Shown piece after piece: positions 3,831 to 5,789 of a DNA stretch of 45,272 nucleotides. The notes under the pieces were generated by a model. That model had not been told where the DNA came from and made no database searches. It saw nothing but the letters and a program-made list of their open reading frames with translations. Source of the DNA: Escherichia phage HannyBb; sequence record PP925841.1, one strand, 5' to 3'. Position 1 is the stretch's first letter; each line of letters begins with the position of its first letter. Position numbers and translations under genes: made by a program.

Positions 3831-5789
3831 ATGCAGGCTGGTCACCAGAGTGACGCGGATATTTATATTTATGACGAGATTGGTTTCTGGGGTGTTACAG
3901 CGAAGCAGTTTATCAGTGATCTGAATGCACTGGGCGATATCACCCACATTAATCTCCATATTAATTCACCGGGTGGCGATGTCTTTGAAGGCATCGCCAT
4001 TTTTAATGCGCTGAAAACACATGGTGCGTCCATTACCGTTTATGTCGACGGTATGGCGGCGTCAATGGCGTCGGTCATTGCGATGGTGGGAAACCCGGTC
4101 ATTATGCCGGAAAACACCTTCATGATGATTCATAAACCATTTGGCTTTACGGGCGGTAATGCGGAGGACATGCGCACCTATGCCGACCTGCTCGATAAAG
4201 TTGAGGCGGTTCTGTTACCCGCTTATGCACAGAAAACCGGGAAAACCACCGATGAAATTGCTGCCATGCTGGCGGATGAGACCTGGATGTCCGGTGCCGA
4301 ATGTCTGGCACATGGATTTGCTGATCAGGTAACGCCAGCCGTTAAGGCAATGGCATGTATTCAGTCAAAACGTACAGAGGAATTTAAAAAGATGCCGGAA
4401 TCCATTCGAAACATGATTACTCCGCCACGCAACAGTGCTCCACGCGTACAGGATGATGAACCTGCAGCCTCCCGGACGCCAGTGCAGGCAGCAGCACCCG
4501 TGGTGGATGAAAACAGCATCCGTGCGCAGGTCCTGGCAGAGCAAAAAGCGCGTGTAAACGGTATTAATGATCTGTTTGCCATGTTTGGCGGGCGTTATCA
4601 GTCGCTGCAGGCTCAGTGTCTTGCCGATCCTGAATGTTCGCTGGAGCAGGCCCGCGAAAAGCTGTTGAACGAGATGGGGCGCGAGTCCACGCCATCCAAT
4701 AAAAATACCCCGGCTCATATTTATGCCGGTAACGGTAATTTTGTGGGGGACGGGATCCGCCAGGCGCTGATGGCGCGTGCCGGATTTGAAAAAACCGAAC
4801 GTGATAATGTCTACAACGGGATGACCCTGCGTGAATATGCCCGTATGTCACTGACTGAACGGGGTATTGGGGTTTCCAGTTATAACCCGATGCAGATGGT
4901 CGGTGCGGCGTTCACACACAGTACGTCTGACTTCGGTAATATTCTGCTGGATGTTGCGAACAAAGCCATTCTGCAGGGCTGGGAAGATGCCCCTGAAACC
5001 TATGAACAGTGGACGCGGAAAGGTCAGTTGTCTGATTTTAAAATTGCCCATCGTGTGGGTATGGGGGGCTTCAGTGCTCTGCGTCAGGTGCGTGAAGGGG
5101 CGGAATATAAATACGTCACCACCGGAGATAAACAGGCCACTATTGCACTGGCGACCTATGGCGAGCTGTTCAGTATCACCCGTCAGGCCATTATCAATGA
5201 TGATCTGAATATGCTGACCGATGTCCCGATGAAACTGGGCCGTGCGGCGAAATCCACTATTGCCGATCTGGTTTATGCCATTCTGACGTCTAACCCGAAA
5301 ATCTCCACAGATAATGTAAGTCTGTTCGATAAAGCGAAACATGCAAACGTACTGGAGAGCGCTGCAATGGACGTGGCATCGCTGGATAAAGCCCGCCAGT
5401 TGATGCGCGTTCAGAAAGAGGGGGAGCGTCATCTGAATATTCGTCCTGCGTTCGTACTGGTACCGACGGCGATGGAGTCTGTTGCTAACCAGGTCATTCG
5501 CTCCTCAAGTGTCAAGGGGGCTGACATTAACGCCGGTATTATTAACCCGGTGAAAGATTTTGCGACCGTTATTGCAGAGCCTCGTCTTGATGATAACAGC
5601 CAGACCACCTTCTACCTGGCTGCGTCAAAAGGCTCCGATACGATTGAAGTGGCTTATCTCAACGGTGTGGATACGCCATATATTGATCAGATGGAGGGCT
5701 TCAGTGTGGATGGCGTGACAACGAAAGTGCGTATTGACGCCGGTGTCGCGCCAGTTGATCACCGCGGTCTGGTGAAATGTACGGCGTAA
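3831..5789 (+). CDS. ClpP-like prohead protease fused to scaffold-like linker and HK97-fold major capsid protein
   Basis: One continuous 652-aa ORF: N-terminus is ClpP-like (S14/S49) (DIYIYDEIGFWG...HINSPGGDV...GMAASMASVI), the middle is low-complexity linker, the C-terminal ~300 aa is capsid-like; no separate C/Nu3/E genes are present. Confidence 0.75.
   Translation: MQAGHQSDADIYIYDEIGFWGVTAKQFISDLNALGDITHINLHINSPGGDVFEGIAIFNALKTHGASITVYVDGMAASMASVIAMVGNPVIMPENTFMMIHKPFGFTGGNAEDMRTYADLLDKVEAVLLPAYAQKTGKTTDEIAAMLADETWMSGAECLAHGFADQVTPAVKAMACIQSKRTEEFKKMPESIRNMITPPRNSAPRVQDDEPAASRTPVQAAAPVVDENSIRAQVLAEQKARVNGINDLFAMFGGRYQSLQAQCLADPECSLEQAREKLLNEMGRESTPSNKNTPAHIYAGNGNFVGDGIRQALMARAGFEKTERDNVYNGMTLREYARMSLTERGIGVSSYNPMQMVGAAFTHSTSDFGNILLDVANKAILQGWEDAPETYEQWTRKGQLSDFKIAHRVGMGGFSALRQVREGAEYKYVTTGDKQATIALATYGELFSITRQAIINDDLNMLTDVPMKLGRAAKSTIADLVYAILTSNPKISTDNVSLFDKAKHANVLESAAMDVASLDKARQLMRVQKEGERHLNIRPAFVLVPTAMESVANQVIRSSSVKGADINAGIINPVKDFATVIAEPRLDDNSQTTFYLAASKGSDTIEVAYLNGVDTPYIDQMEGFSVDGVTTKVRIDAGVAPVDHRGLVKCTA

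Follow-up and report, generated by a model that had tools for sequence, protein, structure and literature searches.

In phage HK97, the maturation protease gp4 is the product of a separate gene, has a fold different from the one described below and is encapsidated by way of its own C-terminal tail, and the capsid protein gp5 (structure 1ohg/3qpr) carries a delta domain. In lambda (C/Nu3) and Mu (I/Z), the protease and the scaffold share one reading frame, and an additional start within it provides greater quantities of the scaffold by itself, the lambda protease being of the SppA (S49) type. Fusions that extend to the capsid protein itself are covered by NF045540, the curated NCBIfam model for the [quoted passage not shown] Nested protease/scaffold genes have also been described in herpesviruses (UL26/UL26.5; PMC11565193). 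Genes annotated as "major capsid and protease fusion" or "protease-scaffold-capsid fusion" have been published for actinobacteriophages, including Arthrobacter phages of clusters AM, AU, and AN, Microbacterium phages of cluster EE and Rhodococcus phage RRH1 (PMC5513430, PMC7302621, PMC9671004). A CBASS preprint was set aside, its subject being a protease-scaffold rather than a capsid fusion.

The window analyzed here, a stretch of 45,272 nucleotides from Escherichia phage HannyBb (PP925841.1), carries a member of the NF045540 family, the gene for head assembly in a lambdoid temperate siphophage of the mEp460/cdtI type (Table 1). Its product is a single polypeptide of four parts, in which a ClpP-fold serine protease, its Ser and His intact, is followed by a disordered linker, then by a scaffold-like segment of three helices and finally by a shell protein of the HK97 fold; taken by themselves, this identity and this architecture are at least very nearly certain. 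The fusion protein scores 984.1 bits against NF045540 (cut-off 475), with residues 9–651 matching positions 2–651 of the 652 in the model, and is matched over its full length by phrog_133, whereas the related model NF045541 yields 400.2 bits, below its cut-off of 525, with residues 197–649 (scaffold and capsid) alone matching. The full-length AlphaFold model has a mean pLDDT of 88 and clear domain borders. The architecture is not new: a curated NCBI model exists, its name is used for gene annotation in Escherichia coli RefSeq genomes and comparable fusions have been published for other phages. The protease/scaffold-like/capsid fusion is already cataloged and very common, and hence a real but ordinary finding. 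No experimental paper on the processing or the products of the enterobacterial NF045540-type family was found in the literature searched.

The initial annotation described a single open reading frame (ORF) of 652 aa, and positions 3831–5789 of the plus strand indeed translate into 652 aa without a stop, in a frame that is open from position 3570. The reading frame stands, but its start is probably another one: translation most likely begins 69 bases upstream of ATG 3831, the shorter start annotated in phage records, at GTG 3762, giving a product of 675 aa. The AAGGAGG sequence in front of this GTG has a predicted pairing energy with the 16S rRNA tail of dG −11.6 kcal/mol and occupies the identical position in related loci. 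Furthermore, 675 aa is also the protein length in the largest clusters of the database, including some under the NCBI fusion-protein name, the W[YF] motif upstream of ATG 3831 is conserved, and, among 58 diverse homologues, 28 have Ile at the position of the Met encoded by ATG 3831. Read from GTG 3762, the fusion gene overlaps the end of the portal gene (stop at 3817) by 56 nt.

Table 1. Features of the fusion gene and its surroundings, in order of position in the window.
Feature	Position	Strand	Remarks
Lambda-type portal gene	2309..3817	+	Pfam Phage_portal_2, phrog_21; start per mEp460 annotation
Shine-Dalgarno sequence AAGGAGG of the full-length gene	3750..3756	+	5 nt upstream of GTG 3762
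Whole fusion gene	3762..5789	+	675 aa plus stop; the 3831–5789 ORF is an in-frame subset
ClpP-like serine protease core	3828..4334	+	residues 23–191 of the 675-aa form; Pfam, NF045542, ClpP structures
Catalytic Ser101 (675-aa form)	4062–4064	+	ClpP-like core
Catalytic His124 (675-aa form)	4131–4133	+	ClpP-like core
Glu173 (675-aa form)	4278–4280	+	aligned with ClpP catalytic Asp
Candidate internal start	4377..4394	+	GAGGAA 4377–4382, 9-nt A/T-rich spacer, ATG 4392
Pro/Ala/Thr/Gln-rich disordered linker	4428..4499	+	hypervariable length and sequence
Scaffold-like segment, residues 250–307	4509..4682	+	three confident predicted helices
Disordered junction, residues 308–326, ESTPSNKNTPAHIYAGNGN	4683..4739	+	candidate maturation-cleavage region
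HK97-fold major capsid domain	4740..5786	+	Mu gpT-like, Pfam Phage_capsid_4
Terminator-like hairpin GGCCCGTAAGGGC, then T-run	5813..5836	+	pattern scan; directly after the fusion gene
Cement/decoration gene	5876..6199	+	Pfam Phage_cement_2, phrog_122 "head decoration"; start per mEp460 annotation

Profile searches with the two halves taken separately were positive for both, and structure prediction agreed with their reading as a ClpP-like protease and an HK97-fold capsid protein. For the N-terminal part, for which a ClpP-like domain had been proposed, Pfam CLP_protease matches residues 23–168 of the 652-aa translation (E = 1.4e-36), a profile aligns with solved ClpP chains (E = 7e-33), and the AlphaFold domain, with pLDDT above 90 in the protease core, superposes on ClpP over approximately 170 residues with a TM-score of approximately 0.8 and an rmsd of approximately 2 Å. 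Bacterial ClpP (S14) has the same fold, with Ser and His in the matching motifs AASM and MIH.P. The domain is nevertheless not a ClpP orthologue: it scores 60.8 bits against TIGR00493 (ClpP proper), the cut-off of which is 308.6, and the cut-offs of all ClpP equivalogs lie far above its score. Unlike ClpP, the fusion protease is tethered to a capsid protein and displays no sign of a 14-mer barrel or an ATPase partner.

A second difference from ClpP concerns the active site, where Glu173 of the fusion protease aligns with the catalytic Asp of ClpP. This substitution would fit a degenerate, inactive ClpP fold serving only as internal scaffold mass, with the capsid matured by a host protease or another phage protease. 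We consider such a role very improbable, given that, across all of the 58 diverse homologues, which reach down to 33% identity, Ser101, His124, and the Gly-Gly of the oxyanion region never vary, with Glu173 itself found in 50 of the 58, that the domain exceeds the cut-off of the NCBI model for ClpP-related head maturation protease domains (NF045542; 217 bits versus 120) and that the head module is without any other protease gene.

The C-terminal half, initially described as capsid-like, clearly has a capsid fold and belongs to the HK97-fold major capsid proteins, in the Mu gpT-like branch. Pfam Phage_capsid_4 matches residues 354–649 of the 652-aa translation (E = 1.6e-54), Pfam Mu-like_gpT gives a weak match, and a profile of the C-terminal part matches the solved capsid proteins 9jod and 8rkx/8rkc (phage JBD30), labeled "Mu GpT domain," with E-values from 6e-12 to 3e-11. 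These relatives surfaced in the PDB only when the alignment was cut to the C-terminal part: sequence-only searches with the whole protein and whole-length profile searches returned ClpP chains alone, and ClpP entries swamped the Foldseek results obtained with the full-length model. The capsid fold was, hence, compared using a separate model restricted to the C-terminal part, and this comparison supports the HK97 fold; the model of the C-terminal half contains a long spine helix (166–193) preceded by a low-confidence hairpin region.

The gene order around the fusion gene is terminase, head–tail adaptor, portal, fusion gene, cement protein, and tail genes, and the mEp460 annotation places a rho-independent terminator at the position of the hairpin that follows the fusion gene. 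In line with the initial observation that no separate scaffold or capsid gene lies between the portal and decoration genes, none is annotated there in the near-identical, fully annotated mEp460, nor does its annotation include a second capsid or scaffold gene; the alternative of a capsid gene at another genomic location was considered and rejected. At the DNA level, mEp460, cdtI, Ayreon, Tritos, and other isolated phages are 99.2%–99.6% identical to the locus, and the gene is matched, at 60%–100% DNA identity, in 2,125 of 5,426 complete E. coli genomes. A first scan of viral contigs recovered close relatives alone (at least 56% identity), and a smaller alignment (A5) was used for the scan of genome contigs.

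Separate genes for a ClpP-like protease and a capsid protein are commoner in phages, as exemplified by Vibrio phage K272, and the single ORF might in principle be an artefact of a frameshift or a lost stop that joined two such genes. The distribution of the fusion renders this reading hardly credible. The ORF, which contains neither a frameshift nor a stop, is uninterrupted in 27 phage records (at least 80% coverage) and in 2,017 complete E. coli genomes, and, of the 150 best-matching cluster representatives, the majority showed near-full-length, uninterrupted matches, many at an identity of just 36%–60%; these representatives come from many bacterial orders.

Between the protease and the capsid domain, the linker (residues 223–246) is predicted with pLDDT below 50, and its length varies in alignments A1 and A2. 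The scaffold-like segment that follows is conserved in the family, with motifs E..R...I and C..D...C, and is modeled by AlphaFold as helices 250–273, 280–288, and 294–307 with pLDDT of 88–97. By likeness to the HK97 delta domain and lambda Nu3, we infer that this segment may serve as a scaffold. Predicted disorder (pLDDT below 50 for residues 316–323) and the borders of the alignments mark the junction at residues 308–326 as one candidate region for cleavage. Additional helices, up to approximately residue 385, precede the core fold in the models, and solved capsid proteins of the Mu gpT type are matched only from approximately residue 385 on, so that cleavage could lie further downstream. The mature capsid protein would, as initially suggested, be released from the fusion by self-processing.

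Whether every capsid subunit would pass through the full-length form depends on a putative second start of translation at the junction of the protease domain and the linker. The ATG in question encodes Met211 of the 675-aa form (Met188 in the 652-aa numbering), and its predicted product of 465 aa (50.7 kDa) would comprise the linker, scaffold, and capsid parts. A motif scan for internal starts confined to the window yielded weak, unconvincing matches, and the signal was clear only in a family-wide DNA comparison of 48 lineages sharing less than 80% identity. Between the protease and the scaffold helices, all 48 lineages contain a start codon in frame, and in 47 of them a Shine-Dalgarno-like sequence (dG −5.1 or better) lies ahead of it. 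These starts fall into two classes that largely occupy separate clades, with the nearest neighbor belonging to the same class in 44 of the 48 lineages, so that the lineages are not fully independent.

In the first class (class A), which includes the window, the ATG is invariant within the motif E(E/D)F..MP in all 25 lineages (less than 80% identity). Its Shine-Dalgarno sequence is short (GAGGA), lies 10–11 nt from the ATG and is formed by the codons of the conserved Glu-Glu/Asp pair, and conserved Glu/Asp/Gly-Met motifs elsewhere in the gene (bins 120–135 and 150–165) also score as "Shine-Dalgarno plus ATG." A signal this weak, distant, and bound to conserved Glu codons, with similar false signals at other conserved motifs and a clade-structured division of the start classes, is compatible with a gene that yields the full-length chain alone, each of the approximately 415 shell subunits bearing its own protease and scaffold and cleaving itself. 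The internal Shine-Dalgarno and ATG would then play no part in initiation and could have arisen as a side effect of a conserved protein motif, act as a site of translational pausing or be the relic of the start of an ancestral, separate capsid gene. This initial reading, which is also in keeping with the single ORF without a stop, with the curated family name denoting one fusion protein and with our own rough volume estimate, by which a procapsid of full-length chains only would be physically possible and a second product not strictly required, deserves serious consideration, albeit as the less probable one. It leaves unexplained the choice of synonymous codons: the codon five positions upstream of the class A ATG ends in G in 23 of 23 cases, the synonym that creates GGA, with GAG in 16 of 16 cases against a background of 45%, whereas its neighbor, the next codon, is unbiased.

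The second class bears on the same question. The junction Met is absent in the other 23 lineages, 21 of which instead have, within the linker, an ATG that follows a good Shine-Dalgarno sequence such as AGGAGG or AAGGAG at a distance of 5–9 nt. Such sequences precede 21 of 25 linker ATGs compared with 6%–7% of the other in-frame ATGs of the same genes (combined p = 3e-13 in a codon-shuffle test), and strong, well-spaced signals in a freely varying linker are not accounted for by a full-length chain alone. The same holds for the sister family NF045541, where a Shine-Dalgarno sequence and ATG are found at the junction in 8 of 12 lineages despite an unrelated protease domain, and a relic of an ancestral start would not outlast divergence to 40% identity. 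From these comparisons of sequences, we consider it somewhat probable that the fusion gene is nested, with the conserved internal start yielding a 51-kDa scaffold-capsid protein beside the 74-kDa protease-scaffold-capsid protein. Many or most capsid subunits may, in that case, be made without a protease domain and be cleaved in trans. No statement of a nested start in these fusion genes was found in the limited literature searched.

Under this two-product reading, the 74-kDa protease-scaffold-capsid chain would start at GTG 3762 and the 51-kDa scaffold-capsid chain, which would be similar to the delta-domain-bearing gp5 of HK97, at ATG 4392. For the steps from procapsid formation and protease packaging to cutting and expansion, we draw on established knowledge of head assembly in HK97, lambda, and Mu. 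The capsid domains would form a procapsid with the N-terminal parts facing inwards, by which the protease would enter the procapsid automatically, and the shell would be built mostly of protease-less subunits, with the ratio of the two start sites setting the dose of protease. The protease would then remove everything upstream of the mature capsid domain from its own chain and from neighboring chains, and the shell would expand, take up DNA and bind the cement protein encoded by the adjoining gene. As a whole, this account of the head-assembly gene, with the two-product step included, is the best explanation available to us, and we hold it with moderate confidence.

Labels such as "Clp protease" or "head maturation protease" in sequence records hide the sole capsid gene of the phage, which affects calls of prophage completeness and capsid-based classification of phages. 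The fusion itself matters little, and the internal start may be of modest interest to researchers of capsid assembly. If true, the nested start would explain how a phage in which protease and shell protein share a frame is spared packing one protease for each subunit, and the view that every subunit is made as a full fusion would be incomplete. The ATG at 4392 and the GAG at 4377–4379 are easily mutated, in phages growing on E. coli K-12 (Ayreon).

Comparison with known systems places the locus closest to the other NF045540 phages (mEp460 gp05, cdtI gp05, Ayreon, and Tritos) and E. coli prophages, in which the gene has the same position between portal and cement genes and which exhibit no difference of substance; relative to the NF045540 relatives, the window copy carries Met where they have Val/Leu/Ile at the third residue ahead of the catalytic Ser, as well as Asn for Asp in GGNAEDM. 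In the NF045541 "prohead protease/major capsid protein fusion protein" (for example, in Ralstonia phage YO122_2), homology covers the scaffold-like and capsid regions (31% identity over residues 201–649) and the overall layout is the same, as is the Shine-Dalgarno sequence with ATG at the junction, whereas the N-terminal domain does not resemble ClpP and matches nothing in Pfam. If the internal start is used, the nested strategy would, judging from the sequences, span two fusion families with unrelated proteases. The actinobacteriophage fusions, likened here by their descriptions, embody the same idea of protease, scaffold, and capsid in one gene, although in phages of different hosts. In HK97, the protease is separate, whereas the ClpP-like protease of the fusion precedes the scaffold segment in the same covalent chain. 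The conserved internal Shine-Dalgarno and ATG of the fusion gene would fit the nested logic of lambda C/Nu3, Mu I/Z, and UL26/UL26.5, although the lambda protease is of the SppA (S49) type and the fusion protease ClpP-like. In those three systems, the shell protein is encoded by a separate gene, whereas the nested product predicted here includes it; if true, their strategy would extend to genes that also hold the shell protein.

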